Notes: generated from the sequence alone by a model not told the origin. Shown: positions 8,094 to 60,611, counted from the stretch's first letter. The stretch is DNA of 64,000 nucleotides from an uncultured delta proteobacterium (GCA_963745835.1 CAVUZH010000018.1:224001-288000), one strand, 5' to 3'. Made by a program: numbers and translations.

Positions 8094-8361
8094 GGGGATC
8101 TCAGGTCTTTTACTTTTGCTGTTTACCCGTGAGCTCGAGTGATCGGTGATTGAGGAATAGCGTAGTCCGAGAAGCTCGCCACATCAACGGTGAGATGATC
8201 GTGGAGTCAAGTGATCGCGGGACCAAACTGAAAGTAGTTGTTTTCCGTCTCCTTATAAGCGCCCAAGTTTCACAGGGGGAGGAAGCTTAAACGCCTTGAC
8301 TAGTCGACTGCAAAACGAGTAGGAACAGAAAACCCACTGCCCACGGAAAGGTATTCTGGCG

Positions 8362-26797: not shown

Positions 26798-27868
26798 ATG
26801 CTGACGAGAGTACGACTAACACTCGTTTTGTTGTTGATCGTGGCGCATGCCCCGGTGTTGCAGGGCGCACAAAGCCGGCCCGGGTCGGTTGCTGAGTTGG
26901 CTCTGTATCAAGGCTCGGATCGCGAAAGCATTCTTATTGAGGGGGCCAAGAAAGAAGGTCAACTCACCTTTTATACCTCAAACACCTGGGTCGCCGGACC
27001 CGTCTCGCAAGAATTTGAAAAAAAATATCCGTTTATCAAAGCCAATGTTTGGCGCAGCGATTCCAAGGCGTTGCTGAAACGCCTCACCGAAGAGCACGCT
27101 GCCGGTAAGTACCTCGCTGATGTCGTTGAAACCAGCCCCGAATACGTAAACCTATTGGTACGAGCTAGCTTGCTGCAGGATCACTTCTCGCCGGAGCTCA
27201 GCGCCTATGATGATGAAGCAAAAGTGAAGGGCAAAAGCGGCGTACTCGCATGGACCAATCGTGAGATTTATATCAGTTTGGGATACAACACCAACTTGGT
27301 TCCAGCTGCAGATGCGCCAAAGACGCTCAAGGATTATCTCGATCCTAAATGGAAGGGCAAGATGGCGATCGCCGGGACCACTACCGGTACCCAGTGGATC
27401 GGCGCTGTGTGGGACACCATGGGTCGGGAGTTTCTGGAAAAACTGAGCGCGCAGGAAATCAACGTGCAGAACATGTCCGGCGCTGCTCTTTCCGGTCTGG
27501 TAGCTTCGGGCGAAGTGCCGCTCTCGCCGACAATTTTCAATTCGAACATATTTACTCACAAGCAGAAGAGCGCCCCGGTCGAATGGCGGCCCATCGATCC
27601 GGTGATCGCCGGCGTGGGCAGCTCCGGCCTGATTGTCAACGCGCCGCACCCGCACGCTGCCTTGCTGTTTCTAGATTATCTTCATTCCAAACTGGGTCAG
27701 CAGGTCGCCATGAAGGGCGGTCTTAGCTCGGCGCGCAACGACATCGGATCGCTGGAGCAAAAGTTCAAAAAAATTTACATGGAGAGCAAATACACGCCCG
27801 AGGAAATGGAGAAAAAGTTCGAAGAATGGGAAGGACTCATGCGTAAGCTGTTCATCCGCAAGCGCTAG
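26798..27868 (+). CDS. extracellular solute-binding protein
   Basis: EGAKKEGQLTFY, FEKKYPFI, APHPHAALLF. Confidence 0.85.
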   Translation: MLTRVRLTLVLLLIVAHAPVLQGAQSRPGSVAELALYQGSDRESILIEGAKKEGQLTFYTSNTWVAGPVSQEFEKKYPFIKANVWRSDSKALLKRLTEEHAAGKYLADVVETSPEYVNLLVRASLLQDHFSPELSAYDDEAKVKGKSGVLAWTNREIYISLGYNTNLVPAADAPKTLKDYLDPKWKGKMAIAGTTTGTQWIGAVWDTMGREFLEKLSAQEINVQNMSGAALSGLVASGEVPLSPTIFNSNIFTHKQKSAPVEWRPIDPVIAGVGSSGLIVNAPHPHAALLFLDYLHSKLGQQVAMKGGLSSARNDIGSLEQKFKKIYMESKYTPEEMEKKFEEWEGLMRKLFIRKR

Positions 27869-27870
27869 GG

Positions 27871-27993
27871 CAGGCTGCTGAAAAAGCTCAGATGCTTCGT
27901 TGCGCTGGCCCGACTCGCTTCAACGTACTGAGGCGTACGCCTCAGCTCATCGAACTTCGCGCGCCTTGCCTCTGAGTCTTTTTGAGCAGCCTG
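27871..27993. mobile_element. MITE family A copy
   Basis: CAGGCTGCTGAAAAAG...CTTTTTGAGCAGCCTG. Confidence 0.8.
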
Positions 27994-28021
27994 CAAACAG
28001 AGGTTTTTGCACACTACCAGT

Positions 28022-28969
28022 ATGCCCATGGACTCTACGATCCTCATCACAGGCGCCAATGGATTCATTGGTTCCCACTTTACCCAACTTATGGAATCCC
28101 TCGGCAATAGAGTTGTTCCTGTCGACGTCTTGCCGCGCTCGGCGGATCTTTCATTGCTGGCGATCCAGACTCCAAGCCGCATCATGAATGTCACCGATGA
28201 AGAGCCCTTCCGGGAGCTCTGCCGGTTGGAACAGCCCACGCATATTTTTCATGCCGCGCATCCTCCGCGCGATGATAGCCCCGAAGTCCTCAATTTTTGC
28301 TATCGTGCGATGACCAACATCCTCGAAGCTGCCCGGGAACTGAAGGTCAAAAGCGTGGTGTACTCCAGTTCCGGGGCGCTTTATGGCCAGCTACGAAAAA
28401 AGGATCACACACCCATAAAAGAAGACGATCCTGTGACGATCTACCCGACTTATTTTTACCGCTCCGGCAAGATCATGTCGGAATGGATGGGTGACTTTTA
28501 CAAACAAAAGTTCGGAGTTCCTTTCGTCGCCTTGAGATACTCGTCGGTCTATGGCCCGGGACTCGCCAGAGGGATTCCGCTGGAGTTGAAGAAGGGTGTC
28601 CTGGGCCAGCCTTGCCGGCCCTACCTAACCCGCTTGCCCGATGATTTGATCTATATTGACGATGTGACCGATGCCGTGCGCCGCGCGCTCTTTACGGAAG
28701 AACCGTTGAGCCGCGCCTATAATATTGCCCTCAATCAGGCGTACGGCAACCAAGATCTCGAGGACTCGATCCGGAAAGCCTTGCCCGAGATCTCTTTTGA
28801 GATCGGCAAGCATCCGCATGCGGCGACTGTGGGAGCGCATCGCGATCGGGATCCGCTGGATATCACTCGCGCCAAGGAAGACCTCGATTGGACACCCACA
28901 ATTGATCTGGAAAACGGCATTGCGCGAATCGCCGCTTGGTTAAAGAGCCATGCTCATAGGCTGAAGTAA
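28022..28969 (+). CDS. NAD-dependent epimerase/dehydratase (extended SDR)
   Basis: ITGANGFIG, YSSSGALYG, YRSGK, LRYSSVYGPG. Confidence 0.88.
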   Translation: MPMDSTILITGANGFIGSHFTQLMESLGNRVVPVDVLPRSADLSLLAIQTPSRIMNVTDEEPFRELCRLEQPTHIFHAAHPPRDDSPEVLNFCYRAMTNILEAARELKVKSVVYSSSGALYGQLRKKDHTPIKEDDPVTIYPTYFYRSGKIMSEWMGDFYKQKFGVPFVALRYSSVYGPGLARGIPLELKKGVLGQPCRPYLTRLPDDLIYIDDVTDAVRRALFTEEPLSRAYNIALNQAYGNQDLEDSIRKALPEISFEIGKHPHAATVGAHRDRDPLDITRAKEDLDWTPTIDLENGIARIAAWLKSHAHRLK

Positions 28970-29012
28970 ACTCGCCACGACGCATCGCCATTATTCGGTC
29001 AGGAGGAAAAAA

Positions 29013-30116
29013 ATGACTGCCTTGCCAATGGCAAAGAACGCTACTGCGATTCGGTGGCTGTTTAAGGCTGGCCTTGTTCTGCTCATTCTCCTGGCAGTTA
29101 TGGAGCAATCAGACGCAGCCGGCAGATCGTTGACACCATCGGAGCTGTTCTTCTATCAGGGCGCGGATAGAGAACAGATTCTCCTCGAAGGAGCAAAAAA
29201 AGAAGGGCAGCTGGTTTTCTATAATTCCCATACCTGGTTTAAGTCCGTCGCGCAGGAGTTCGAGAAGAAATACCCCTTCGTGAAGGTCTCAGTCTGGCGC
29301 GCCGATGGCGCGGATGTAATGAAGAGAGTTTTGGAAGAAAGTCTAGCCGGCCGTTTCCTCGTTGACGTAGTCGAGAGCACCGAGGCCAACATCGGCGGTC
29401 TGCACAAACGACAACTGCTTCAGGAACACCACTCTCCCGAACTTCGTTTTTTTAAGGATGAAGTCCTAGGCAAGGGCAAGCGCGGAGTATTTTACTGGGC
29501 TGACCGGGAGACTTATATCAGCCTGGGCTTCAACACCAACCACGTATCTATTGAGGAAGCACCGAAGCGCACTCAGGACCTTCTCGACCCTAAGTTTAAA
29601 GGCAAGATCTCCTTCGCCGGCGGCGCCACGGCTGCAAGATGGGTAGGCGCCGCCATCGACACGCTGGGCAGGGATTTCATCGAAAAGCTGAGCCGCCAGG
29701 ATGTCACAGTCCATAAACTCTCCGGCGCCGCGCTCGCCAACCTGGTGGTGACAGGAGAAGTGCCGATTTCGCCGACAATCTTTGACTCCAACATGTTTGT
29801 TGCCAAGAACAAGGGCGCTCCGGTGGAATGGCGGCCGATGGAACCGGTTGTGGCTAACGTCGGTTACTCCAGCGTGGTCGCCAAGGCGCCGCGTCCACAT
29901 GCCGCTCTGCTCTTCATTGACTATCTCCATTCCAAGGAAGGTCAGCAGGTGGTGGTGAAAGGGGGTCTCAGCTCTCCTAGAGACGATGTTGACTCTCTGG
30001 TGCCACAGAAGTTCAAGAAGACCTATCTTGAAGCTAAATATCCTTTGGATGAATACGAAAAAAAGCTCGACGAGTGGGAAGATCTCATTCAACGGCTTTT
30101 TATCAGAAAAAGGTAA
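29013..30116 (+). CDS. extracellular solute-binding protein
   Basis: Paralog of 26798 and 30136; EGAKKEGQLVFY. Confidence 0.85.
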   Translation: MTALPMAKNATAIRWLFKAGLVLLILLAVMEQSDAAGRSLTPSELFFYQGADREQILLEGAKKEGQLVFYNSHTWFKSVAQEFEKKYPFVKVSVWRADGADVMKRVLEESLAGRFLVDVVESTEANIGGLHKRQLLQEHHSPELRFFKDEVLGKGKRGVFYWADRETYISLGFNTNHVSIEEAPKRTQDLLDPKFKGKISFAGGATAARWVGAAIDTLGRDFIEKLSRQDVTVHKLSGAALANLVVTGEVPISPTIFDSNMFVAKNKGAPVEWRPMEPVVANVGYSSVVAKAPRPHAALLFIDYLHSKEGQQVVVKGGLSSPRDDVDSLVPQKFKKTYLEAKYPLDEYEKKLDEWEDLIQRLFIRKR

Positions 30117-30135
30117 GTTCTAGGGGGAGGCAACC

Positions 30136-31215
30136 ATGTCCCTGAAGCGATCCAATCGCCGGGCCGGGGTTCCACTTATCGCTGCCATCTGCTTACTTAC
30201 GACGGTCAACGTATTTGCGGCGAGCGCGCCGATGTCGGATGCACAGATCGCCCTCTATCAGGGTATGGATAGAGAAAAAATGCTCATCGAGGGAGCGAAG
30301 CGAGAAGGGCAGCTCACCTTTTACAACTCACATACCTGGTTTCGAAGTTACGTCAAAGAATTCGAGAAAAAGTATCCTTTCATCAAGGTCGCAGAGTGGC
30401 GCAGCGATTCAAAGAATCTGCTCAGCCGAGCAATGGCAGAGTTCGGTTCTACTCGTTCTTTAGTGGATGTCATTGAAACTACCGCTGAAGCCATGGGCGT
30501 GATGAAACGGAACGGCATGTTTCAGGAGTATTTTACTCCAGAGGCGCGTTACTATCCCGACGATGTCAAAGTAAAAGGCAAGAGCGGAGTCTACTATCTT
30601 GGCGATCGCGAGACGTATAACAGCTTAGGCTTCAACACCAACCTCATTGCTGCGAACGAGGCGCCGAAGACGCTTAACGATCTGCTCGATCCAAAGTGGA
30701 AGGGGAAAATGGCCATTGCCGGAACATCCACCGGCGTGAGATGGGTTGGTAGCACACTGGATACGCTGGGCCGTGAGTTTCTGAACAAAATGGCCGCACA
30801 GGAGTTAACGGTGCAAAATATGTCCGGGGCGGCGTTGGCGGGTTTGGTAGCATCCGGAGAAGTTCCGTTATCGCCCACGATCTTCGACGCCGATGTGACT
30901 GTTGCAAAGCAAAAAAATGCGCCAATCCAATGGCGTGCTCTCGATCCCGTCGTCACCACGGTCGGCTATTCCGGTTTATCGTCCAAAGCCTCTCATCCAC
31001 ATTCGGCTTTGCTCTTTCTTGACTACCTGCATGGCAAGGAGGGACAGCAGCTAATGATGAAAGGCGGCCTTTGGTCGCCTCGCGATGACACTGGATCTTT
31101 GGATCAGAAGTTTGAGAAACTCTACCTTGACAGCAAATACTCGCTCGAAGAGCTCGAAAAGAAGCTCGTCGAATGGGAAAATTTGATGCGTCAACTTTTT
31201 GTTCGAAGAAAGTAG
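30136..31215 (+). CDS. extracellular solute-binding protein
   Basis: EGAKREGQLTFY, GEVPLSPTIF. Confidence 0.85.
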   Translation: MSLKRSNRRAGVPLIAAICLLTTVNVFAASAPMSDAQIALYQGMDREKMLIEGAKREGQLTFYNSHTWFRSYVKEFEKKYPFIKVAEWRSDSKNLLSRAMAEFGSTRSLVDVIETTAEAMGVMKRNGMFQEYFTPEARYYPDDVKVKGKSGVYYLGDRETYNSLGFNTNLIAANEAPKTLNDLLDPKWKGKMAIAGTSTGVRWVGSTLDTLGREFLNKMAAQELTVQNMSGAALAGLVASGEVPLSPTIFDADVTVAKQKNAPIQWRALDPVVTTVGYSGLSSKASHPHSALLFLDYLHGKEGQQLMMKGGLWSPRDDTGSLDQKFEKLYLDSKYSLEELEKKLVEWENLMRQLFVRRK

Positions 31216-31360
31216 ATGTCGATCGGGTTGTGCGGCAGCCAGCCGCGCTGCGTGCATTGGTCGGTAGCTCAGAGTAGGCCGGATCTCGTTATATCAGACA
31301 CTGTTGACTCCGATTTAGAAGCAACTTATGGCTAAATGATGCTGCAATTTACAAGGAGGA

Positions 31361-33013
31361 ATGCTCTCGATGAAATCACGGCATTCACCGCATCCTGATT
31401 TGATTCTGCACAGCGGCAAGATTCGTACTCTTGCCGGCAATGGTTCGATCTGTGAGGCGCTCGCTTGTGCCGGCGGGCGCATCGTTGCCATTGGGTCATC
31501 TGACGAGATTCGACGACTTGCCGGACCCGACACCGAATCTTTCGATCTCAAGGGCAGAACTGCCATCCCTGGATTGACGGATACGCACGTTCATCTTTCA
31601 GAGAAGGGCACCGCCGAAATGGAGCTGGTGGATTGCCGCGATTTTTACGTGGATGTGAACTCCGTCTCTGATATTTTGCAGCGGCTTGCCAATGCCGCCG
31701 CCGGCGCTCCGAAGGGCTCCTGGATCGTCGCCCATGGCAGTCCGATGCAAGACTTCCGCATCGAAGACAAACGCTTTCCCAACCGGCATGATCTTGATCG
31801 CGTCGTGCCCGATAATCCGGTTTCCATTTCTTTCGGCGCGCATGTCACTATCGCTAACACGCCGGCTCTGGCGGCGGCGAAGATTACACGCGATACCGCG
31901 GATCCCGCCGGCGGCCACATCAGGCATGATCCGCAAACCGGAGAGCCCACCGGCGAATTGCACGAGCGGGCGCAATTGATTGTCAAAAAAGTGGCGCCGG
32001 AATTTAATTATCTGCAATTGAAAGATGGCATCGTCTTCGCGTTGGATCAATGTCTTCAACGCGGCGTGACCACCGTTCACGACATAGTCCGCTATGCCGA
32101 GCCGGTGCGGGCGTATCAGGAGCTTTACAAAGAAGGCCGCATGCATGCCCGGGTGAGTATCTTGCCCCGGGTGATCGAGTCGATGATCGAATCGAAGAGC
32201 CTGATCGAGCTCGGTCTCATCACCGGCTTCGGCAACGAATGGCTGCGCATCGGCGGGGTCAAGATGAGCATCGACGGCGGGATTACCGGACGCAATGCTT
32301 GTTTTCATGAGCCTTATGAAAACGACGAGCACAACCACGGCATTATAAGGATTCAGCAAGACGAGCTGAATCATACCGTGCAGGTATGTCACGATGCCGG
32401 GCTGCGCTGCTGCGTTCACGCCATCGGCGACAAAGCTTTCGATATGGCGCTGGACGCCTACGAAAACGCTATCGAGCATTCGCCGCGCAAGGATCATCGC
32501 CATCGTATCGAACACATGGGCAATTGGCTGGCCACGCCGAAACTCATGCAACGAATGGTACGATCGGGCATCGTGGCGATTCCAAATATTGCTTTTGCCT
32601 ATTATATCGGCGATGCCATCCTCGATTGCGTCGGCGAGAGGCGGCTAACCAAAGCTTTTCCATTTCGAACGCTCTTGAAGAACGGCGTAATCATCGCGGG
32701 CGGCTCCGATTCCCCGGGCTATTGGCCGGTCGATCCTCTACGGGATATTGCCACTGCCGCGTCACGCAAAATGCGCTGGGGCGATGTGTGGGTGCCCGAG
32801 GAAAGAATCAGCGTGAGTGAAGCCTTCGCGATGCACACCACGACGGCGTCGTGGGTGGGGTTCGAGGAGAACGAAAAAGGCACATTGGAGGTTGGCAAGC
32901 TCGGCGACATCGCCGTCCTGACGGAGGATCCATTTGAAACTCAACCGGAGCGCATCAAGGATATCAAAGTGGAGATGACGTTGGTGGGCGGAGAGGTGAA
33001 GTACCAGGCCTAG
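31361..33013 (+). CDS. amidohydrolase 3 family (YtcJ-like)
   Basis: PGLTDTHVH, KMSIDG, HAIGD, RIEH, GSDSP, GTLEVGKLGD. Confidence 0.9.
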   Translation: MLSMKSRHSPHPDLILHSGKIRTLAGNGSICEALACAGGRIVAIGSSDEIRRLAGPDTESFDLKGRTAIPGLTDTHVHLSEKGTAEMELVDCRDFYVDVNSVSDILQRLANAAAGAPKGSWIVAHGSPMQDFRIEDKRFPNRHDLDRVVPDNPVSISFGAHVTIANTPALAAAKITRDTADPAGGHIRHDPQTGEPTGELHERAQLIVKKVAPEFNYLQLKDGIVFALDQCLQRGVTTVHDIVRYAEPVRAYQELYKEGRMHARVSILPRVIESMIESKSLIELGLITGFGNEWLRIGGVKMSIDGGITGRNACFHEPYENDEHNHGIIRIQQDELNHTVQVCHDAGLRCCVHAIGDKAFDMALDAYENAIEHSPRKDHRHRIEHMGNWLATPKLMQRMVRSGIVAIPNIAFAYYIGDAILDCVGERRLTKAFPFRTLLKNGVIIAGGSDSPGYWPVDPLRDIATAASRKMRWGDVWVPEERISVSEAFAMHTTTASWVGFEENEKGTLEVGKLGDIAVLTEDPFETQPERIKDIKVEMTLVGGEVKYQA

Positions 33014-33135
33014 GATAACGGACTACGGATACGGCACTCGCAAGCAGTGATCCGCATTCGAGTCGCCGCCCGATCCCTGCTCAGCGATCGGCTTTGTTCA
33101 AGTTCGTGAATCTTCTCTTTGGTTGTAAGGAGAAT

Positions 33136-34143
33136 ATGGAGTTCTGTCACAACCGTGATTTCCGCCCCAGATTAGCGTTATTTGCCGCCATTGTTATTCT
33201 TGTGTTGCCAACCTTGGCGGCGGCACAATCACCACTCAAAGTAAGAGCAGCTTATGGAGCGATGTCCGCAGCTATGGCGCCGTTGTGGTACGCCCAAGAC
33301 ACCAAGCTGTTCGATAGGTTTGGAGTACATGTAGAGCTGCTATATATACAGGGCCAGCCGATAGCTCTTCCAGCGCTTGTGACAAAGGAAATCGATGTGT
33401 TGTTGACCAGCGGTGGGAGCGCTGTTCCTTTTATCATGAATGGCTTGCCGTTGACCATGGTTGCCAATCTCAACAACATACAACCGTATCGGCTGCTGGT
33501 CGCTCCGGAAATCAAAAATGCGAGTGATTTGAAGGGCAAGAAAGTGGCCGTAAGCCGGATCGGCGCCACGAGTCATCAACTCGCTGTCATGAGTCTCGAA
33601 AAGCTCGGACTTAAATCCAATGACGTCACTTACTTACAAGTGGGTGGCCAGTCAGAAAGACTTGCGGCTCTCAAGGTGCGCGCTGTCGATGCGACATTGA
33701 TCAACCCGCCGGCCAATCTGACGGCTCGTAAACTGGGATTCAATGAAATCTTCGATCTAAAAGAATTGGGAGAGAACTTCCTCTTTCAAGTGCTCGTCAC
33801 TCGCAAGACCGATTCGGATATTAAGGTCGAATGGCTTCAACGTTTCATAAAGATGACCATGGAAGCAGTAAGGCTGATGAAGGCTGATCAACAGACTACT
33901 ATCAAAATCATCGGCAAGTATCTTAAGGAAACGGATCGCGAAGCCCTCGAAGAAAGCTTCAAAGTTCATGCGCTGAGCATGGTCGACTATCCGCTGGTGA
34001 GCCGTAGCGCAGTGGAGGATGCCTACAATGACGCTCTCAAGGCGCTGAAAGGAACCGTTCCCAGGAATACCAACATAGACAGCATGTACGACAACAGTCT
34101 GTTACAGAATATCAAAGGCGGGGCGCAATCTGGAAAGAAGTAG
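33136..34143 (+). CDS. ABC substrate-binding protein, NMT1/SsuA family
   Basis: AAGGAG RBS; DLKGKKVAVSRIG; ERLAAL. Confidence 0.85.
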   Translation: MEFCHNRDFRPRLALFAAIVILVLPTLAAAQSPLKVRAAYGAMSAAMAPLWYAQDTKLFDRFGVHVELLYIQGQPIALPALVTKEIDVLLTSGGSAVPFIMNGLPLTMVANLNNIQPYRLLVAPEIKNASDLKGKKVAVSRIGATSHQLAVMSLEKLGLKSNDVTYLQVGGQSERLAALKVRAVDATLINPPANLTARKLGFNEIFDLKELGENFLFQVLVTRKTDSDIKVEWLQRFIKMTMEAVRLMKADQQTTIKIIGKYLKETDREALEESFKVHALSMVDYPLVSRSAVEDAYNDALKALKGTVPRNTNIDSMYDNSLLQNIKGGAQSGKK

Positions 34144-34156
34144 ACCGGTAATCACT

Positions 34157-34537
34157 ATGAAGCCCAAATTCATCAAACACGATCCGCCTCGGCGTTATTC
34201 CAAGGCGTCGGTTTATGGCGATTTCATTTTTTTGGCGGGCGAAGATTCCAAAGACCCAAAAACTCAAAAGGTGAGGGGAACAACGGCCGCCGAACAAGCG
34301 GAGTACCTGTTCCAGAATATGAAAGCAACGCTGGAGAGTTTAGGAAGTGGACTTGAGGATGTCATCAAGACTACGATCTATCTCACCGACGCTCGCCACG
34401 CCGATGGTTACCGGGAAGGGCGTAAGAAATATCTGCCGCATGCGCCGCCGAGCACTCTTATCATGGGTGTTCAATTGGCCGAACCGGAGATGCTGATCGA
34501 AATCGAAGCGGTAGCCGTAATTTCTGAAAAAAAGTAA
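34157..34537 (+). CDS. RidA family protein
   Basis: YSKA, FIFLAG, PPSTL, LIEIEAVA. Confidence 0.88.
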   Translation: MKPKFIKHDPPRRYSKASVYGDFIFLAGEDSKDPKTQKVRGTTAAEQAEYLFQNMKATLESLGSGLEDVIKTTIYLTDARHADGYREGRKKYLPHAPPSTLIMGVQLAEPEMLIEIEAVAVISEKK

Positions 34538-34607
34538 CCGCCATGTCAGAGATCGTTGCTAGATTGTGTGGTTGCACTCTTTCTCTATTGTCAGGACGCT
34601 GCTTGGG

Positions 34608-35189
34608 TCAGCTTTTTACTTTCAGAGTTGGAGCGAGCCCGGTCGTCGTATCGCCTAAAACCTCTCCATGAGCGATACCCAGCGTTTTAATCCAGCGCTG
34701 CTGTCCCAAGGTAAGCGCGACAAAAAAGCCGAGCTCAACCAACTCTTCGGTGGTAAAGTGCTGATGCAACTTCTGCCAGAGTGCGTTGTCAGCGATTCCT
34801 GAGTTCCAGATAATCGCGCTGGTATAGGTCAGCGCCACCTTTTCCCGTTCGGAAAACTTTTCCGAATCGGCAAAATTCAGCAGCTCATCAATCTTGTCCT
34901 CGGTCAGACCCTTCCGTCCAGCCTGGACGGACCGCTGGACTCCTCAGTATTCACAGTCGATGGACTTTGAAACATAAACACGGCAGAGCTCCTTGAGAGC
35001 ATGGTCGCAAACACCCTGCCGGTAGGTCAGTTCCCATGCTTGCGAGAACGCCCGAATGACACTTGGGTTATTGGCCCGAATCGCTTGACTCTCAGGCCGG
35101 GGCGTACCTTCTTTGCGCGCCAGTTCGAGGTAACCCAGAATTTCCGGGTCCGTGATAGACGCCGGATCGGCATAGGGAATGTGCGGCAT
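34608..35189 (-). CDS. AhpD/carboxymuconolactone decarboxylase-family selenoprotein (UGA=Sec at 34944-34946)
   Basis: LKELCRVYVSKSIDCEY-TGA-GVQRS... continues in frame to FTTEELVELG; CxxU motif; hairpin TCCGTCCA-GGC-TGGACGGA just 3' of the UGA. Confidence 0.8.
34913..34946 (-). promoter_or_regulatory. candidate bacterial SECIS element
   Basis: 8-bp stem with a G-containing loop 20 nt downstream of the in-frame UGA. Confidence 0.65.
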
Positions 35190-35226
35190 TGGCAGTACCT
35201 CCTTCGGTCAACCCTACTCGGCTGCA

Positions 35227-36288
35227 TCAATTGAAGCCATAGAACTTCTTTGGATTCGTCTCAAGGATTTTGCTGACCACCCCAGGTGCAATTCGTTTAT
35301 CATTGCGCAGCAGATGAATGGCGTTGAGCTCGGTCGAGGGATCATGGTGACCGTAGTCGGTGCCGATCATCAGACAATCCTCGCCGGCATGGCTCAATAC
35401 GTAAGGCAGATCATCAGTGTTTTCGCATGCCACCCACAGGTTGTTTGCCGCGAGCGGGTCGGCTGGAAACGGTCTCCCCTGACGCCGGAAGCGATCGGCT
35501 AGATCGTTGAGAACATAGGGCACCCATTGGGCGCTGACCTCGACAAAGCCCCAGCGAACCTTCGGAAATTTTTTCGGAATTTCTTTCTCAAGCAAGGTAT
35601 GGAAAGCGCCGACGACAGTCAATTTGAATTTAGTAAAGCTAGTATCCTCGGCGAAGAAGTCATGATGAATAAAACTGCCGTTGGCCGAATGAATGCAGAC
35701 GGGAAGATCGAGTTCGGCCGCCATTTCCCAGAGCGGGTAGAAATACGGAGCGCCGAGCGCCCGCTCGCATTCCAGGCCGCGCATGAAGATGCCGCATGCG
35801 CCGTTTTTCTTGGACCATTCGAGTTCCTGTCTTAATGCGGCGGGCGTTTTTTCCAGCAAACGCAGGGGCGGCTTGGCCACCCAGCGCAATCGCCCTTGAC
35901 CCTGCCGCCAAAGCTCGCCCATCCAGCGATTATAAGACTTGCACAGAGCACGCTCGCGTTCGGCATCCTGCAGAACCGGCCGGAGAAACAGCGTCGGATA
36001 AAGCACCTGCGTTTCGATGCCGAGGTCATCCATATGCGCGAGCCGTGCCTGGACGCTGAGCATTTCACGCGATTCCTTTGACGTATCCGTGCCCACATTG
36101 CGGTCTTTGCCGAATGCGCGGTTCTCGATCACCCAGAATTCGGGGACGGCGATTCCTTCATTACTGAGAAGTTTCTCGCCGAAGGTTTGAGTCATGAGTT
36201 GCGGAGTGTAACGTCTTTCATCATTCTCCAGGTAGCTCCATGTCTGCACCGTCTCGATCACATGTGCATCTGCGTCAATCGCTCCCAT
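35227..36288 (-). CDS. amidohydrolase 2 family (decarboxylase/hydratase-like)
   Basis: IDADAHV, QVLYPT, YNRW, PVCIH, GTDYGH; AGGAGG RBS. Confidence 0.88.
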   Translation of the reverse strand: MGAIDADAHVIETVQTWSYLENDERRYTPQLMTQTFGEKLLSNEGIAVPEFWVIENRAFGKDRNVGTDTSKESREMLSVQARLAHMDDLGIETQVLYPTLFLRPVLQDAERERALCKSYNRWMGELWRQGQGRLRWVAKPPLRLLEKTPAALRQELEWSKKNGACGIFMRGLECERALGAPYFYPLWEMAAELDLPVCIHSANGSFIHHDFFAEDTSFTKFKLTVVGAFHTLLEKEIPKKFPKVRWGFVEVSAQWVPYVLNDLADRFRRQGRPFPADPLAANNLWVACENTDDLPYVLSHAGEDCLMIGTDYGHHDPSTELNAIHLLRNDKRIAPGVVSKILETNPKKFYGFN

Positions 36289-36646
36289 CAGCTTCCTCCT
36301 TGAACTAAAGTACTTCCGCTCCGAGTTGCTCGTGATGAGGACCACCAGTTCGTATCCACCACCGGCTTCTCACGGAACCATGCAACAATACTGGAGGGCA
36401 TTGGCATGTCATAACATGATCGGTTTGAAGCGGGCAATTCAATAGAGCAGCTCGATTCTACAGCTTGGATCTCGCGGGGAGCCAGGCATTTTTGTAGCTC
36501 GACCTATCCACCAACGGATTCTATCGTACCGTCAGACTTGACGTTGCTTGTGAATTCTCGGCGGTGCCGCTATTGAGTAAAAAACCGGTTCAATGACAGC
36601 TTCTAAGCCTTGCGAATGAACCTTGACCTCGATAGGAGGAACTTTG

Positions 36647-36956
36647 ATGCTGCATATTGCTTTTCTATTTACAGTAGATCACCGATGCCGCGAAGATGGA
36701 AGAATACCGCAGCCGCGTTCTGGCAACCGTAAAGCATTATGGCGGGCGCTACTTGGCAGTGGGCGGCAGATGCGAGGTGGTGGAAGGCACCTGGCGGCCG
36801 GTATTGCCGGTGCTCATCGAATTTCTAAACCTCGAACCGGCCAAGGCCTGGTACGGTTCCGATCAATACAAAGAGCTGAAAGCGCTGCGACTCTCGGCGA
36901 CCAAGGGCGACGTGGTGTTCATAGAAAGCGGGCCCAACGAGTTCGACGGGCCTTGA
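36647..36956 (+). pseudogene. DUF1330 protein with a damaged 5' end
   Basis: AGGAGG RBS and ATG 36647 out of frame; in-frame TAG at 36675 before ITDAAKMEEY...YGGRYLAVGG...AKAWYGSDQY. Confidence 0.7.
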
Positions 36957-37140
36957 TGTGCCGAATTAGGTGGAGCTAGCCTGTGCCGCATGCTAACTTC
37001 TATGATCGCAATGCAGACTCGCGACATTCAAGCTTAGCTTAACAGTATGCAAGAAATCCCAGAATCTCTGAGGTGGGTTCTTTGAGCGGGAGATGGATCG
37101 CGGAAAAGTTTTATAATTTATCTCCCAGGGAAGGAGACGG

Positions 37141-37362
37141 ATGAAAGTTGTTCTGCTTGCTTTGGCGATGTTGGTGGCTGCCTGCGCCAGCCCGCCGCCA
37201 CCGGCTCAAACGAGGGACAAGACCACTACAACGGCAAACCCAAGCAGCTTGAGTCGTGATACCACGGATTGCGAGCGTCAGGCTGCGCTGGCCGGCCCGG
37301 GTGAGAGAGCCAAAGCTTTTGAGAGCTGCATGAAAGCGAAAAACCGGACGCCGCAGCGTTAA
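37141..37362 (+). CDS. small lipoprotein
   Basis: AAGGAG RBS; lipobox LVAAC; DCERQA...FESCMK cysteine pair. Confidence 0.75.
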   Translation: MKVVLLALAMLVAACASPPPPAQTRDKTTTTANPSSLSRDTTDCERQAALAGPGERAKAFESCMKAKNRTPQR

Positions 37363-37409
37363 AAGCGGATAAAGATCCAACTGCGCGAGATTACGCCGCC
37401 GAAGCCGGA

Positions 37410-39812
37410 CTAGCGCAACACCTCTCGTTGTCTGAGATCCGCAATCTGCCGGCTGGACATGCCCAGTAATTCACCGAATACCGACTCGTTATCGTCGCCG
37501 GCGAAGCGCGCTTGCTCTTCAGCCGTAAATTTCGCTGCGCTCGACCGAACTGATGGCCCGGCGCGCGTCACCCAACCGGTGGACTGATGAAACACCTCCC
37601 GCGCAGAGCCGCGCTCGCGCAGGTGCGGATCGCGATAGAGATCTTCGGCGGTTTGCACTACCCCGGCGGCTATGCCGTTGCGCTGCAAAATCATCATGAC
37701 CTGATGCGGCGTGTGCCGGGCCGTCCACGAGTCGACCAAAGGATCGAGCTCTGAACGATTTGCAACCCGGGATGAAAGATCCCTGAACCGAGCATCTGCA
37801 AACCACTCGCGATGGCCGACGACATCGCAGAAGTGCGCCCATTCTTCTTCCGTCTGCACCGAAATAACACACCAGCGGTCGTCTCCCTTGCATTTATAGC
37901 AGCCGTGCGGCGCAGAGAACGCGCTGAAATTGCCGCGTGGTTGAGGCTCCCGCCCGGTTAGCAACCATTCCAGATGTGCCGGAGCAATGAGCGAGGCAGC
38001 CGTCTCGGCCTGGGAGAGGTCGATGTACTGGCCTTTGCCGGTACGCGCGCGATAGTGCAGAGCCGCTAGAATCGCCAGCGCGCCATAGGAGGGCGCGATG
38101 TAATCGGGAAAGGCCGTCTGACAAGCGGCACCCGGCCGCTCGCTTTCGGGATCACGCCAGAGATAAGCCATGCCGGAATAAGCCATGAGAATTGGTCCGA
38201 AACTGACATAGTCGCGCCGCGGCCCGGTCTGACCAAAAGCCTGAAGGCTGGCCATAATGATGTCGCTGCGAACTTTGCGCATGCGCGGATAGTCCAGTGA
38301 CCAACTCGCCATCACCCGGGCGCTGAAATTTTCCGCGACAACGTCCGATTGAGCGATGAGGCGCTTGGCGAGATCCACTCCCTCGCTGTGCTTCATGTTG
38401 ATGGCGATCCGTTTGCGGCCGCGGTTACTTTCGAGATCGGAGGCAATTTGAAATTGTTGGCCGCGCTGCGGGCTGCGGATGGCCCGACCGGCTTCAATGG
38501 AAATAACCTCTGCGCCATGTTCAGCCAACAGGCAGCCCAGGGCCGGTCCGACAACGCCGGTTGGAAAACTGATGACTCTGATGCCCGCAAAAGCTCGGCT
38601 ACTGCTCTCCGGTGATTTCAATGATTCCAGCGCCGGTGAGGGTCGCGACCAATCGCTCGTTATCATTGATTGATGTTCGCCAACGAGCGGCGCGCCCCGG
38701 CCGATATGCCAGGGGCTTTCAGAAAATTTATAAGGATCCCCAGGAAAACGGTGCCGGCCTAAATGAGCGTGATTGATTTCCACAACATAGTCGCGATGCC
38801 GGGTCTGTTCATCATCGAGAAAGGCACTGGGCGAGTTAATTGGGGCGGCGGCCAACCGACGCCCTTGAAATTCATCGAAGAAACCTTTCACGTAATAATT
38901 CAAAGTGCGGGCCTCGATGAGACGATCGAGCAGCGGCCGTAGTGGCAATCGGTTCTGCACGTTCTCGAATTTGGGATCGATCAACTCCGGTGGATTTCCG
39001 AGCCATTCAACCAGACGTCGCCAGTGATCCGGTTGGTTGCAGAAGAGGCGAACAAAACCGTCTTTGCACTGGTAGGTCTCAGCAACCGTCGTTGCCTGGC
39101 TGTGTCCGGTGCGCTGCAGTATTTCACCCGTGACACTGTAGCGCGTGATGATGCGTAGAAAGGGATCGGCAACCAACACGTCCTGAAGTGAGATGTCCAG
39201 ATGATCGCCACGCCCAGAGACGCGCCGGTTGAACAGGGCTACCAAGGTGCCAAACGCCGCATGCACGGATCCCAGACGATAGGCGATATCGCACGGACCG
39301 CTGAGCGGGGCGCGCTCGGGATGGCCGCATAGATTCATCAAACCGCCCATCGCAAATGCGACGATACTCGGCGTCTTGAAATCGCGATAAGGGCCCGTGC
39401 TGCCAAAGCCACTGATGGAAGTCATGACCAGTGCTGGATTGATGGCTTGCAGATCTTCGTATCCGAGACCGAGCCGTTGGCAAAATGCCACTGGACGATC
39501 TTCGATGAACACGTCTGCATGGCCAACGAGATGGCGCAGCCTTGCACGATCATTCTCCGACTCTAGATCCAGGACAATTCCCTGCTTGTTTGTGTGATAG
39601 GCGGCAAAGGAGATACTTCCTTCCGGGTTCGGACTGTCCTTGAACGGCCCCTCGCCTCGCATGATTTCGCCACCGGGTGGTTCTATGAGAATTACCTCGG
39701 CGCCAAGATTTGCCAGAAGCAGACCGCAGTATCCTCCCATTCGACTGGTAAAATCCAAGACACGTAGACCGGCTAACGCACCCGATTTCAATGGATTCGA
39801 TTCGACAGGCAT
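37410..39812 (-). CDS. CoA-transferase family III (CaiB/BaiF), two fused domains
   Basis: LAGLRVLDF...GAEVI and FAGIRVISF...GAEVI repeats; DVVAENFS. Confidence 0.9.
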   Translation of the reverse strand: MPVESNPLKSGALAGLRVLDFTSRMGGYCGLLLANLGAEVILIEPPGGEIMRGEGPFKDSPNPEGSISFAAYHTNKQGIVLDLESENDRARLRHLVGHADVFIEDRPVAFCQRLGLGYEDLQAINPALVMTSISGFGSTGPYRDFKTPSIVAFAMGGLMNLCGHPERAPLSGPCDIAYRLGSVHAAFGTLVALFNRRVSGRGDHLDISLQDVLVADPFLRIITRYSVTGEILQRTGHSQATTVAETYQCKDGFVRLFCNQPDHWRRLVEWLGNPPELIDPKFENVQNRLPLRPLLDRLIEARTLNYYVKGFFDEFQGRRLAAAPINSPSAFLDDEQTRHRDYVVEINHAHLGRHRFPGDPYKFSESPWHIGRGAPLVGEHQSMITSDWSRPSPALESLKSPESSSRAFAGIRVISFPTGVVGPALGCLLAEHGAEVISIEAGRAIRSPQRGQQFQIASDLESNRGRKRIAINMKHSEGVDLAKRLIAQSDVVAENFSARVMASWSLDYPRMRKVRSDIIMASLQAFGQTGPRRDYVSFGPILMAYSGMAYLWRDPESERPGAACQTAFPDYIAPSYGALAILAALHYRARTGKGQYIDLSQAETAASLIAPAHLEWLLTGREPQPRGNFSAFSAPHGCYKCKGDDRWCVISVQTEEEWAHFCDVVGHREWFADARFRDLSSRVANRSELDPLVDSWTARHTPHQVMMILQRNGIAAGVVQTAEDLYRDPHLRERGSAREVFHQSTGWVTRAGPSVRSSAAKFTAEEQARFAGDDNESVFGELLGMSSRQIADLRQREVLR

Positions 39813-53377: not shown

Positions 53378-53549
53378 CAGGCTGTCTAAAAGCATAGGCT
53401 TGGTTGCGCTTGATTGCGCTCACCTAGAGTTCGTGTTTCGTGTTCGTGCTCGTTCGAAATTCTCGCTCACGTTTTTCACGGACAGGATCACGAGTATTCC
53501 GCCTCTGAGTCCTTTGAGCAGCCGGCAATCAGAGTTTTTCAGCAATCTG
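53378..53549. mobile_element. MITE family A, degenerate copy with a TTCGTG-repeat insertion
   Basis: CAGGCTGTCTAAAAG...CTCTGAGTCCTTTGAGCAGCC...AATCAGAGTTTTTCAGCA. Confidence 0.65.
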
Positions 53550-53605
53550 ACAGCGCAGATGCAGAATTCCGGAATCAGTATTTAGCCGACCAAGGGCGAG
53601 GGCCG

Positions 53606-54716
53606 ATGTTAGAAGAAACCAAAGAGCAATTGGTGCAACTGGAACAAAGACTCGATAAGCTTCGGAGGCGTCTTTGACGTCGAAAGCAAACAGAAGCGTC
53701 TCGAGGAACTAACTCAAATCACTTCCCAGCCTGATTTCTGGAACGACGCCGACAAAGCTCAGACGATATTCAAAGAGCAGTCCTTTCTTAAAACTGTCAT
53801 AGAAAATTGGGAGAAACACCGAACGGGCCTCGAAGAGGCTCGTTTTTTTCTTGACCTTGCCGGCGAAGGGGAGGGCGACGAGGCTTTGCAAGAAGCGGCA
53901 GCCAAAGTCGCAGAAGTAACTCAGGGAATGGCTGAGACCGAGCTCGCGCAGATCCTTGGCGGTGCCGATGATCGGCGCAATGCGATCGTCACGCTTCATC
54001 CTGGCGCCGGCGGCACCGAGGCTCAGGATTGGGCGGAAATCTTGCTGCGCATGTATTTCCGCTGGGCCGATCGCCGTGGCTACCGCAAGGAAATTCTCGA
54101 ATACCAACCAGGCGAAGAAGCAGGTTTAAAGAGCGTCACCTTCAGTGTCGAAGGCGACTACGCCTACGGCTACCTGAAAGCGGAAGCCGGCATTCACCGG
54201 CTGGTGCGAATCTCCCCTTTTGACGCCAATTCGCGGCGTCATACTTCATTTGCTTCGGTGTTCGTCTATCCGGAAGTGGATGACACCATCAAAGTGGAAG
54301 TTGACGAAGCCGATTTGCGTGTCGACACTTACCGCTCCAGCGGCGCTGGCGGGCAGCACGTCAATAAAACCGATTCCGCCGTGCGCCTCACCCATCTCCC
54401 CACCGGCATTGTGGTCGCGTGTCAGAACGAACGCTCGCAGCACAAGAACCGGGCGATGGCCATGAAGATATTAAAATCTCGGCTTTACGAATTGGAGCTC
54501 GAGAAGCAAAAAGAAAAAATGGATACCTTGCACAAGACTAAAAAGGATAACGCCTGGGGCAGCCAGATCAGGTCCTATGTGCTGCATCCTTACCGGTTGG
54601 TTAAAGATCATCGCACCAATATCGAAATCGGCAACGCCGATGCGGTGCTCGACGGCGATATCGATCCATTTATTCAAGCCTACTTACTGCACGACAGTGA
54701 TTCGCCGGCCGCTTGA
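53606..54716 (+). CDS. prfB: peptide chain release factor 2 with programmed +1 frameshift
   Basis: GGAGG-CGT-CTT-TGA-C at 53664-53678; SPF and GGQ motifs. Confidence 0.96.
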
Positions 54717-55172
54717 GTTCCCACTGATATCTAACGGTGACGAACGCCGAAGGCGGGTTATCACGGCAACCATCTGTTTACTTCGGCTGTAATTTTCTCT
54801 TCTTGAAGAACTGAATATGGCTCAGCGCGTCGGACCGGCGAAGTGAAAGCTGTTTACGAGAACACGCTCGCCGGAGTTCGACTATCGGTACTGTAGAGGA
54901 GAGGGAATAAGCTTCCTCCGAGCGTGAGAATCTTCGGCCTCTGTTCGCCGCTGCTTGAAGCTCACGTCGGTTTTGACATAGGTATTTATCGATCGGGTGC
55001 CGGGGTGGGCGGCGCGAAGAAGACTCATCGCGACGCAGATAGCCCGCACTGAGCACAACAATTCGGCTTTGAATAGCGGAACCAATGCACGGCATTTGCG
55101 AACTAGAAATCATCTTTGACAGAATAGCGAGGATTATTTTATGCGCGGAATAACTCCAAGACGGGAACAAGG

Positions 55173-56046
55173 CATGGCCGATCCGGTCTTGGCCGAAATG
55201 GTTCATGCCACGGGGGCAACCGAGTCACGCCACTTTGCGGCGGTGAAACCGGTCATTCAAGCTTATCGCGCCAGTTGGGTTAAACTGGCGCCCTATCGTG
55301 ATGGTCCGGTGAATTCGCAGCGGGTGACAGTCAGCGATCCGGCGGCGATGACCGCGCAGATCAAGAGCAAGGCAAAGGAACTGGGCACCGACATGGTTGG
55401 CGTCTGCCGCTTGCAGCCGCATATGATCGATCTCGGCTCGGAGGTGGTCCATGAGTTCGTGATCGCCTGCTGCGTCGCGGAAGATTATGAAAAAGTTATT
55501 CACGGGCCGGATGCGGTCGAGGAAGAAGCGATGCGGACATACGCCAAGTGCACAGAGATCGCTACGGCGCTAGCCGCCTACATACGCCAGATCGGATATC
55601 CCGCGATCGCGCACCACAATGGCGCCAGCGAAGTTCAGGCGATTCCGATTTTCTACCAGGTGGGATTCGGCGAGCTCGGGCGCCATGGCAGTTTGATCAA
55701 CGAAGAATTCGGCGCAAGCTTTCGGCCGGGATTCGTGACCACCGACTTGCCGCTGGTGGAAGATCAGCCGCGCGAGTTTGGCGTTCAGGACTTCTGCATG
55801 CACTGCAATGTATGCCAGCGCAACTGTCCCGGCGATGCAATCCCCCAGGATCACGTGATGACGCATGGTATCAAGCGTTGGCTGATCGATCTAGAAAAAT
55901 GCTACCCATACTCCCGGCTGCGCGACGAGTATTGTCATCTGTGCGTCGATGTCTGCCCGTACATCGTGAAGTCGCATCCGGAAACCTATAAAACGTTCAT
56001 GAAAGAGCGCAAGCAAGTGGGCTACAAAACGCCGAAGACTTATTAA
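55173..56046 (+). CDS. reductive dehalogenase-like cobalamin/2x[4Fe-4S] protein
   Basis: AKELGTDMVG, GFGELGRHGSLI, VTTDLPL, FCMHCNVCQRNCP, KC...CHLCVDVCP; start 55141 or 55173. Confidence 0.75.
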
Positions 56047-58358: not shown

Positions 58359-59549
58359 ATGGAAGAGAAGAATGTTAGTGCAATCGACGGAACGAGCGAC
58401 AATGTTGAAGCCGCAGTGCTGCAGCGTTACGGCAACGCGGCGCAAGAGGTCGAAGCCTGTTTGTGCCTGCCGGTCAGCTACGACCAAGCTCTATTGAACG
58501 TCATCCCTGACGAGATCATCGAAAGAGACTACGGCTGCGGCGATCCCACCCGGCACGTCCGCCAAGGTGAGACCGTGCTCGATCTGGGCTCGGGCAGCGG
58601 CAAAGCCTGCTACATCATCGCTCAGATCGTCGGCGCTGAGGGCAAAGTCATTGGCGTGGATTTCAATCCGCCTATGCTCGATCTCGCGCGCAAATACCAA
58701 AAGTCGATCGGCGATCAGCTCGGTTATCATAATGTCGAGTTTCGCCGCGGTAGAATTCAGGATCTTAGAACTAATCTGGAGCTAATCGATCTATTCTTGC
58801 AGGAAAACCCGGTGCGATCGGTGGCGGATCTCGCGCGCTTGGAAAGCTTTCAGCACACGGTTCGTGATGAACAGCCTTTGATCGCCGATGAGTCCATCGA
58901 CGTGATCGTTTCCAATTGTGTCCTCAACCTGGTTCGGCCGAACGATAAGAAATCTCTGTTCGCCGAGATGTACCGCGTGCTTAAGCATCGCGGCAGAGTC
59001 GTGATTTCGGATATCGTCAGCGATGAGCCGGTGCCGGAACATCTGGCCAAAGATCCTGATCTATGGAGCGCGTGCGTTGCCGGCGCTTTTCTTGAAGATG
59101 AGTTTCTGCGCGCCTTCGAAGAAGCGAAGTTTTACGGCATTCACATCGAAGAGCTCCGCAGCGAGGCTTATCAGACCGTCGAAGGCATCGAGTTTCGCTC
59201 TATCACAGTGACTGCTTACAAGGGAAAAGAAGGTCCGTGCGACGAGCGGAACCAGGCAGTCGTTTACCGCGGCCCGTGGAAGCAAGTGGTCGATGACGAC
59301 GGCCACACGCTGGAGCGCGGCGCGCGCATCGCGGTTTGCGACAAGACGTTCAAGCTCTATTCCCAGCCACCGTATCAGGACCAGTTCATTCTGCTACCGC
59401 CGCGGCAAGAAGTTCCGCTCGATGAAGTCGGTCCATTCGATTGCTCGCGCGAACATAAGCGCCATCCGCGCGAGACCAAAGGCGTTGGGTACAAAGTTAC
59501 CAGCGCCGCCGCAAGCGCCAGCACGCCGGGCTCGGCGTGCTGTCCATAG
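58359..59549 (+). CDS. arsM: arsenite methyltransferase-like SAM methyltransferase
   Basis: ACLC, YGCG, LDLGSGSG, SNCV and WSACVAGA cysteines; C-terminal CC. Confidence 0.75.
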   Translation: MEEKNVSAIDGTSDNVEAAVLQRYGNAAQEVEACLCLPVSYDQALLNVIPDEIIERDYGCGDPTRHVRQGETVLDLGSGSGKACYIIAQIVGAEGKVIGVDFNPPMLDLARKYQKSIGDQLGYHNVEFRRGRIQDLRTNLELIDLFLQENPVRSVADLARLESFQHTVRDEQPLIADESIDVIVSNCVLNLVRPNDKKSLFAEMYRVLKHRGRVVISDIVSDEPVPEHLAKDPDLWSACVAGAFLEDEFLRAFEEAKFYGIHIEELRSEAYQTVEGIEFRSITVTAYKGKEGPCDERNQAVVYRGPWKQVVDDDGHTLERGARIAVCDKTFKLYSQPPYQDQFILLPPRQEVPLDEVGPFDCSREHKRHPRETKGVGYKVTSAAASASTPGSACCP

Positions 59550-59657
59550 AAGACAGGCAGGGAAGCAAGGAGAAGGAAGACAGGGAGACAACGCGAGCAT
59601 ATGATCTTACCTTCCTCTCCCACCACGGGAGAGGATCAAGGTGAGAGTGATCTTTTT

Positions 59658-60611
59658 ATGCAACCCTTTTCCCATAAGATCCATCCTAGGAACGGCTTGA
59701 GCCGTCGCGCCATCGACACCCTGCAGGTAAACCTGGGCCGTTACTGCAATCTCGCCTGCATTCATTGCCATGTCGAATCGGGTCCGACCCGCACAGAAAT
59801 GATGAACCGGGAAACGGTCGATGCCGTGCTGCGATTTCTCGCCAGCTCGAATATTTCGGCTCTCGATATCACTGGCGGCGCGCCGGAGCTAAACCCGAAT
59901 TTCGACTATCTTGTTGAATCCGCGGTCGGTCTGGGGCGACACGTCATGGATCGCTGCAACCTGACCGTGATCTTCGAGCCTGGAAAAGATTATCTTCCTG
60001 AGTTTTTCAAGCGCCATGGCGTGGAACTCATCTGTTCGCTGCCCTGCTATTCCGAAGAGAACGTCGATCGCCAGCGCGGCAAGGGTACCTTCGAGTTGAG
60101 TATCCGCGCATTGCAAATGCTCAACGCGATTGGTTACGGCAGGGACGCTAATTTAGTTCTGAATTTGGTCTACAATCCGGTGGGCCCGCACTTGCCGCCG
60201 GCCCAGGAAAAGCTCGAACAAGATTATAAAGAGATTCTTAACGAGCAGTTTGGCGTCGTCTTCAATCAGCTTTTCTGTCTCACCAATATGCCGATCACGC
60301 GTTACGCGACGCATCTTAAATTGCGCGGCGAGTACGACTCTTACATGAACCTCCTCGAGAGCAGCTTCAACCGGTCAACGCTCGAACAGGTGATGTGCCG
60401 CAATCTTATCAGCATAGGCTGGGAAGGCCTGGTATACGATTGCGATTTCAACCAGATGCTCGATCTGCCTCTGACCGACAATGATGGAAACCGGTTGAAC
60501 ATTGCGTCGCTGACGGTTGAGCAGGTTGCCTGCCGAAAAATTATCATTGGCAATCACTGCTACGCCTGTACGGCCGGAGCGGGCAGCAGTTGTGGCGGCA
60601 CGCTGGTTTAA
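59658..60611 (+). CDS. arsS: arsenosugar biosynthesis radical SAM protein ArsS family (Cys form)
   Basis: LQVNLG..CNLACIHCHV, DITGGAPE, VMCR, YDCDFNQ, HCYACTAGAGSSCGG. Confidence 0.88.
   Translation: MQPFSHKIHPRNGLSRRAIDTLQVNLGRYCNLACIHCHVESGPTRTEMMNRETVDAVLRFLASSNISALDITGGAPELNPNFDYLVESAVGLGRHVMDRCNLTVIFEPGKDYLPEFFKRHGVELICSLPCYSEENVDRQRGKGTFELSIRALQMLNAIGYGRDANLVLNLVYNPVGPHLPPAQEKLEQDYKEILNEQFGVVFNQLFCLTNMPITRYATHLKLRGEYDSYMNLLESSFNRSTLEQVMCRNLISIGWEGLVYDCDFNQMLDLPLTDNDGNRLNIASLTVEQVACRKIIIGNHCYACTAGAGSSCGGTLV

Follow-up and report, generated by a model that had tools for sequence, protein, structure and literature searches.

The window, a 64,000-nt stretch of DNA, contains on its minus strand a single frame of 193 codons that runs from an ATG at 35189 to a terminal TGA at 34610..34608. 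The sole in-frame interruption is a TGA at codon 82 (34946..34944), which is preceded by C79-E80-Y81. ORF calling with table 11 splits the frame at this codon into a fragment of 81 aa (34944..35189) and a fragment of 76 aa that begins at an internal GTG (34608..34838). A sequence-only reading of the window had described two ORF fragments in one frame, parted by one TGA, with a read-through length of 193 aa; both fragments were located, and translation through the TGA reproduces that length. The features of the locus are collected in Table 1. No SECIS-type hairpin was found behind the terminal TGA (34608..34610).

Table 1. Features at the locus of the proposed selenoprotein gene, with positions counted in the window
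Feature	Position	Strand	Basis
Predicted selenoprotein CDS, AhpD/CMD-like, proposed Sec at codon 82	34608..35189	-	Translation, Pfam CMD, homologues, predicted fold
Codon 82 TGA, second position of the CxxC-type motif (C-E-Y-U)	34944..34946	-	Sequence and codons of relatives
Cys79 codon, partner Cys of the CxxU motif	34953..34955	-	Cys at -3 in all 79 best loci
Putative SECIS hairpin, 8-bp stem, apical A-GGC-U	34913..34931	-	Fold, RNAalifold, covariation
True terminator, likewise TGA	34608..34610	-	Homologue C-termini fall in the same region
Shine-Dalgarno-like GAAGGAGG, 8 nt ahead of the ATG	35198..35205	-	Read from the sequence
Upstream Amidohydro_2 gene	35227..36345	-	Pfam PF04909, E 2.2e-15; ends 37 nt before the ATG

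The read-through product matches the Pfam CMD domain (PF02627) over residues 44-123 with an E-value of 2.6e-7 and a score of 31 bits, compared with a cut-off of 23. A search of a large protein collection returned 2468 candidates, 2394 of which were homologues at E <= 0.001, mostly 190-205 aa long and many of them named 'alkylhydroperoxidase family enzyme' by JGI or 'carboxymuconolactone decarboxylase family protein' by NCBI. The AlphaFold model, built with 37 aligned sequences, is all-helical with a mean pLDDT of 88.3 and a pTM of 0.84. Comparison of this model with the PDB using Foldseek resulted in 31 matches at E <= 0.001, and the matches listed are AhpD-like/CMD proteins (2prr, 6k40, 2oyo, 2ijc, 7xw1, and 6ohi/6ohj) with TM values of 0.60-0.85, those for AhpD-like structures being given as 0.70-0.78. 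The domain score and the AhpD-like predicted fold agree with the CMD/AhpD family assignment made in the sequence-only reading. A sequence profile search of the PDB gave seven matches, with Bmp8 at the top (E 2.6e-10) and PA0269 virtually equal (4.5e-10). The best NCBIfam models were NF053654 with 59.6 bits (cut-off 310) and TIGR01926 with 26 bits (cut-off 81.8). These scores are far under the cut-offs, indicating that the protein is positioned inside the AhpD/CMD superfamily but outside both curated families. The model of PcaC, the gamma-carboxymuconolactone decarboxylase, gave no match, as only NF053654 and TIGR01926 were returned from NCBIfam at E <= 0.001.

The first residue of the motif, Cys79, is almost invariant in the homologue alignment A1. 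At the alignment column of position 82, 109 of the 120 homologues listed have Cys, as expected from the claim that the TGA takes the place of the second Cys of a CxxC motif; ten of the remaining homologues, all of them JGI calls, have Trp, and one has a gap. In AhpD, a His four residues past the second Cys serves as a proton relay. The equivalent residue here is Arg86, and the Q85-R86-S87 segment is invariant in both the Sec and the Cys forms.

Alternatively, each fragment could be a small protein in its own right, an N-terminal one of 81 aa and a C-terminal one translated from an internal start such as the GTG at 34838, and table-11 ORF calling does yield exactly those fragments. This explanation is highly improbable. 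Homologues of the Cys form consist of one chain of about 190-205 aa, protein-level conservation extends through the 35 codons that separate the TGA from the GTG (from G-V-Q-R-S onward), and both parts contribute to a single compact AhpD-like domain in the predicted fold.

To determine the state of codon 82 in relatives, genome contigs were scanned with 13 aligned close homologues as the query. The scan yielded at least 600 pattern matches, 584 of them confirmed, and the best 80 were kept, representing 79 loci with 69-98% amino acid identity. The titles of these best loci include Binatia, Rokuibacteriota, delta- and betaproteobacteria, Syntrophobacteraceae, Burkholderiales, and Chloroflexota/Ktedonobacterales, as well as Actinomycetota, Armatimonadota, Verrucomicrobiia, Dormibacteraceae, and others. 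As mapped by tblastn, all 79 best loci (from the best 80 of the 584 stretches) have TGA as the homologous codon, with TGG, TGC, or TGT in none of them. The check proposed in the sequence-only reading, a tblastn search for homologues with Cys or TGA at this site, thus finds both states, TGA in every one of the best loci and Cys in most of the homologues listed, Cys being the state of the more distant ones. One contig (L036) contains two copies of the selenoprotein gene, at 8156 and 10937 and therefore 2.8 kb apart, and the TGA and the hairpin are present in both.

No stop occurs within 105 codons past the TGA in any of the 79 best loci. Comparison of the window with its relative L002 resulted in Nei-Gojobori dN/dS values of 0.073 downstream and 0.020 upstream of the TGA, and the median values against the window were 0.075 downstream (54 loci for which dS was computable) and 0.069 upstream (15 loci). 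The lack of further stops together with the low dN/dS values indicates, at the level of sequence constraint, that the part past the TGA is translated and is constrained like the part before it.

The ten Trp-bearing JGI calls (P0002, P0003, P0004, P0007, P0008, P0009, P0015, P0021, P0027, and P0028) do not group together on a FastTree tree of 199 rows but are interspersed with the TGA forms; the P0002 protein overruns the usual end by about 60 aa. The scatter on the tree and this overrun are most simply explained by a gene caller having rendered the TGA as Trp. On the same tree, a quick one in which the column of the Sec/Cys trait itself was left in, the state of the site (Sec with W, or Cys) changes at least nine times, with five changes forced by well-supported branches, which hints that Sec/Cys exchange happened repeatedly.

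A pseudogene, in which an ordinary Cys-type AhpD-like gene has recently acquired an inactivating nonsense codon (TGC/TGT or TGG to TGA), would account for the Cys seen in 109 of the 120 homologues listed and the W in ten JGI calls, and would be in line with the Sec machinery not being found in the window. A recent mutation is difficult to reconcile with a TGA shared by all 79 best loci across many phyla, with purifying selection past the TGA that equals that upstream and no further stops in these loci, or with the conserved and covarying RNA hairpin described below. The W calls also lose their weight as support for this explanation, as they are intermixed with the TGA forms on the tree and the excess length of P0002 suggests a W supplied by the gene caller. 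We therefore regard a pseudogene as extremely unlikely.

The sequence downstream of codon 82 forms a hairpin, UCCGUCCA-GGC-UGGACGGA (34931..34913), which is comprised of eight pairs, from U-A to A-U, and a GGC triloop. The hairpin begins 12 nt and its loop 20 nt past the TGA, so that the 8-bp hairpin with a G-containing loop noted in the sequence-only reading is present at the distance given there. The hairpin alone has a folding energy of -12.5 kcal/mol (z = -3.0), a value that 2 of 200 shuffles attain. The wider single-sequence context is unexceptional, with a z of -1.08 for 42 nt (27 of 200 shuffles as good) and of -0.23 for 71 nt (83 of 200), and the case for an above-chance structure is therefore built on comparative data and not on folding energy.

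For this comparison, 57 nt counted from the TGA were aligned for 80 distinct sequences, namely the window, 78 loci, and the second L036 copy; L001 was omitted, being identical to the window over the 57 nt. RNAalifold predicts the same helix from these 80 sequences, pairing columns 17-23 with columns 27-33. Standard pairing holds for all six core pairs in every one of the 80 sequences, whereas the closing pair 23-27 is broken in nine. Three of the pairs vary in sequence with pairing retained: pair 18-32 is C-G in 58, G-C in 13, and U-A in 9 sequences, pair 20-30 is U-A in 76, C-G in 3, and U-G in 1, and pair 19-31 is G-C in 67 and G-U in 13. Paired cells amount to 98.4% compared with 92.6 +/- 0.5% in shuffles, and the covariation score is 0.229 compared with 0.117, with 0 of 500 shuffles reaching either value; relatedness alone can beat shuffle controls of this type, a weakness from which slid controls are free, and when the 3' arm was slid by 1-3 columns only 15-44% of cells were paired. 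Column 18, a synonymous Ser wobble position, covaries with column 32, where the changes alter the amino acid (Arg CGG, Gln CAG, Ser UCG), and column 20 (Val-to-Ala) covaries with column 30, a synonymous Gly wobble position. Judged from the codons involved, protein constraint cannot yield this covariation between synonymous and amino acid-changing sites. The wobble columns 21, 24, and 33 within the stem are invariant (80/80), and the wobble columns 6, 9, 12, and 15 just before the stem have three or four bases each.

The loci L061-L079, of Ktedonobacterales/Chloroflexia type, have a variant hairpin, UCGGUCC-GGUCU-GGAUCGG (columns 16-34 of A3), the loop of which begins GGUC. The encoded peptide changes from SVQAGR to SVRSGS in these loci, such that the RNA structure is kept as the protein sequence drifts.

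The bSECIS model, as summarised in a 2026 review, has an apical loop of 3-9 nt on an upper stem of 4-16 bp, the pattern N1-G-[G/U]-N-N2 with N1 and N2 paired and G in the first two loop positions, a distance from the UGA to the loop of 16-37 nt, and an MFE of <= -7.5 kcal/mol (PMC13188914). The hairpin lies within all of these published limits, with a stem of 6-8 bp, a spacing of 19-20 nt, and -12.5 kcal/mol, and its loop pattern, A-G-G-C-U or, in the Ktedonobacterales-type variant, G-G-U-C-U, fits the model as given in that summary. The bacterial SECIS geometry suggested by the sequence-only reading is thereby supported both by the published description and by the conservation and covariation of the hairpin. 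Rfam gave no match at gathering score for the whole window. To provide a negative control for the hairpin, DNA of Cys-form homologues was sought in a plasmid collection, where the nine matches, at 33% identity or less, were too distant to serve.

UGA is also used as a stop in this window, where 16 of the 57 long ORFs end in TGA, including the selenoprotein gene itself. The window contains prfB (53414-54716, plus strand), encoding RF2 with PCRF and RF-1 domains at 53886..54716. This gene has the classical +1 frameshift site ...CUU UGA C (53663..53678), at which a short upstream ORF ends with RRRL-TGA. The presence of RF2 with its frameshift site and the 16 ORFs ending in TGA exclude a reassigned genetic code.

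Downstream hairpins are able to stimulate read-through in general, and the hairpin found here could act in this manner, aiding read-through of the UGA by a near-cognate tRNA (Trp, Cys, or Arg) with no involvement of Sec; use of UGA as a sense codon would be another Sec-independent route. Genome-wide reassignment is already excluded by RF2 and the ORFs that end in TGA. Further, the UGA occupies the place of the redox Cys in a CxxC motif, where Sec and Cys classically alternate, the hairpin fits a SelB-type bSECIS in loop pattern and spacing as these are summarised in the review, and the family is documented as a selenoprotein family in the published descriptions cited below. Sec-independent recoding is on these grounds very unlikely. 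We conclude that the frame at 35189..34608 on the minus strand is, with high probability, one gene for an AhpD/CMD-like (COG2128-type) selenoprotein of a redox family, in which UGA is read as Sec with the assistance of a SECIS element.

Genes for the Sec machinery were searched for in the window and around the related genes. Pfam identified no selA, selB, or selD among the 57 ORFs of the window, and ARAGORN found no tRNA-Sec in the window or in the 60 of the 79 best loci that were scanned. A tblastn search with SelA, SelB, and SelD of E. coli K-12 found nothing over 1,109,574 bases (the window and the 79 loci), a span in which approximately 0.6 co-locations would be expected by chance, too few for the negative to carry weight in either direction. 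A search for a second selenoprotein gene in the window, by TGA read-through of the stretches not covered by ORFs, found none; the only single-TGA read-through candidate, 54982..56046, was rejected because of its implausible leader. A literature search on selenocysteine in Binatia or Rokubacteria gave nothing relevant among the matches listed.

The window also contains an ArsM-like SAM methyltransferase gene (58359-59549, plus strand) followed by a gene for the radical SAM protein ArsS (59601-60611, plus strand). ArsS scores 444 bits, against a cut-off of 300, with TIGR04167, 'arsenosugar biosynthesis radical SAM (seleno)protein'. This family also has Sec forms, and the C-terminus of the protein in the window, GSSCGG, is the Cys form.

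In the proposed mechanism of decoding, the UGA at codon 82 would escape RF2 and would be decoded by Sec-tRNA(Sec) brought by SelB, which in turn would be recruited by the downstream hairpin with its loop 20 nt past the UGA. From the match of the hairpin to the SECIS model we infer that SelB-dependent Sec decoding takes place in the source genome, with delivery of the Sec-tRNA to codon 82.

The product would be a CxxU thiol/selenol oxidoreductase on an AhpD fold. In work on M. tuberculosis AhpD the second Cys of the motif is reportedly the attacking nucleophile. By analogy, Sec82 would attack as the nucleophile, and Cys79 would act as the resolving residue by forming a selenenylsulfide with the oxidised selenium; a cellular thiol system would then re-reduce this bond. 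The substrate is most likely a peroxide or a disulfide/oxidised partner; a small molecule passed on by neighbouring catabolic enzymes would be a possible alternative.

The neighbouring genes bear on this question of function. The sequence-only reading placed the gene 37 nt downstream of an amidohydrolase-2 gene and suggested from this position a role in catabolism. The spacing is confirmed (Table 1), the interval between the two genes has no terminator-like site, and a weak consensus match to a promoter is positioned at 36412..36385 upstream of the Amidohydro_2 gene. From this arrangement the two genes are probably co-transcribed. Clustering of the neighbours, 505 ORFs within 5 kb of the gene in the 79 best loci, gave Amidohydro_2 as the largest cluster, with 17 members in 14 of the 79 loci. 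An Amidohydro_2 gene is directly upstream on the same strand in eight of the 79 (L001, L002, L012, L021, L023, L038, L040, and L057), and these adjacent cases make up two sequence subgroups. Outside L001 and L002 the Amidohydro_2 neighbours are 25-29% identical to the protein in the window, and are paralogues rather than orthologues. A glyoxalase-fold protein is encoded near the gene in 11 of the 79 best loci and directly upstream in seven, and three further clusters, an NMT1-like binding protein, a Fer2-adenylate cyclase protein, and MurJ, are present in nine loci each. No conserved operon was found among the 79 best loci, where even the largest cluster reaches only 14. Pfam found no peroxiredoxin or ahpC partner, either among the 57 ORFs of the window or among proteins representing the ten largest neighbour clusters.

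The surroundings of the gene (26798-39812 of the window) are syntenic with L002, a Candidatus Binatia MAG contig (DASUVS010000158.1). Ten neighbour proteins have matches in L002, nine with 92-98% amino acid identity and one, a solute-binding protein, with 55%. L001 carries the same pair of Amidohydro_2 and selenoprotein genes. From these matches the source organism is probably a Binatia-like bacterium. The window as a whole is rich in genes for solute-binding proteins, amidohydrolases, luciferase-like monooxygenases, and RidA, and also holds a doubled family-III CoA-transferase of 800 aa.

The suggestion of a catabolic role via the amidohydrolase is thus weakly supported: the association is recurrent at the family level (14 of the 79 best loci), but direct adjacency is limited to eight of the 79 and does not extend to a conserved operon. 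Taken together these observations hint, at most tentatively, at a catabolic link to the amidohydrolase. A broader form of the same idea is that the clade as a whole is a Sec-dependent small-molecule redox enzyme on the CMD fold with a catabolic function and not one in peroxide defence, for example a Bmp8-like reductive dehalogenase or desulfurase. Its partners may then be the neighbouring Amidohydro_2, glyoxalase-fold, or binding-protein genes, and Sec may be used as in the deiodinases. We consider this unlikely. If true, it would make the protein a widespread selenoenzyme of soil and groundwater, found under at least ten phylum-level labels and without a curated model.

For annotation, the reading of the frame as a selenoprotein gene would give one 193-residue selenoprotein in place of two fragments or a pseudogene. 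As this protein scores below the cut-off of every curated NCBIfam model, at least 79 species-level genomes from many phyla would need the same correction. It would also imply that the source organism, which is near a Candidatus Binatia MAG, uses selenocysteine. As the hairpin is near-invariant across phyla and covaries between synonymous and amino acid-changing sites, the gene provides a clean comparative example of a bacterial SECIS element constraining a coding sequence. The assignment opens no new question and should come as no surprise to specialists.

Several known systems can be compared with the predicted protein. The debrominase Bmp8 (6ohi/6ohj), a thiol-dependent reductive dehalogenase with a CMD fold, has the motif C-M-Y-C where the protein described here has C-E-Y-U, and the folds superpose with TM values of 0.72-0.76. 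The sequence identity is 16-18%, and the score of Bmp8 is no better than that of the AhpD-like protein 2ijc (E 4.5e-10), which makes the match no more than a lead. Neither the window nor the neighbour clusters showed a halogenase or bmp-type gene. A full-text literature search for the debrominase Bmp8 gave no match, and a looser search returned only a passage in a review.

AhpD of the Mycobacterium/Pseudomonas type shares with the predicted protein the all-helical fold and a CxxC-type motif on the same helix. The differences from canonical AhpD are the Sec in place of the second Cys, Arg86 where PA0269 (C-A-Y-C-V-N-M-H) has His, and the lack of an AhpC/peroxiredoxin gene among the 57 ORFs scanned. 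Because of the Arg in place of His and the lack of a nearby peroxiredoxin gene, the protein is called AhpD-like and not AhpD, a name that reflects its sequence features. The NCBIfam families NF053654, 'YciW-related (seleno)protein', and TIGR01926, 'peroxidase-related enzyme', have the same core (residues 17-166), whereas the scores far under their cut-offs set the protein apart as a subfamily of its own, for which the matches include no curated model.

The closest parallel is provided by selenoproteins described from metagenomes. In the Sargasso Sea data of 2005, the CxxU selenoproteins reported include 27 AhpD-like (COG2128) and four CMD-domain (PF02627) sequences (PMC1088965), and 299 'AhpD-like 1' and 70 'AhpD-like 2' selenoproteins are given for the GOS data of 2008 (PMC2398784). 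Several AhpD-related Sec families appear in the table of the 2026 review (PMC13188914), and BSepDB has a page for an AhpD-like family (PMC13326102). The statement in the sequence-only reading that AhpD-like selenoproteins exist is therefore well founded, as CxxU forms are documented in the first three of these sources. As they are described, the AhpD-like/CMD selenoproteins of Zhang and Gladyshev belong to the same superfamily and share the CxxU motif, in which Sec takes the place of the second Cys; they also have a bacterial SECIS element directly downstream and widespread Cys homologues. Those families come from marine reads, whereas the clade found here, compared with them by description only, comes from MAGs of Binatia, Rokuibacteriota, Chloroflexota, Actinomycetota, and others. 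AhpD-like CxxU selenoproteins have thus been known since 2005, and the gene in the window adds to them, possibly as a member of a subfamily that has not been modelled.
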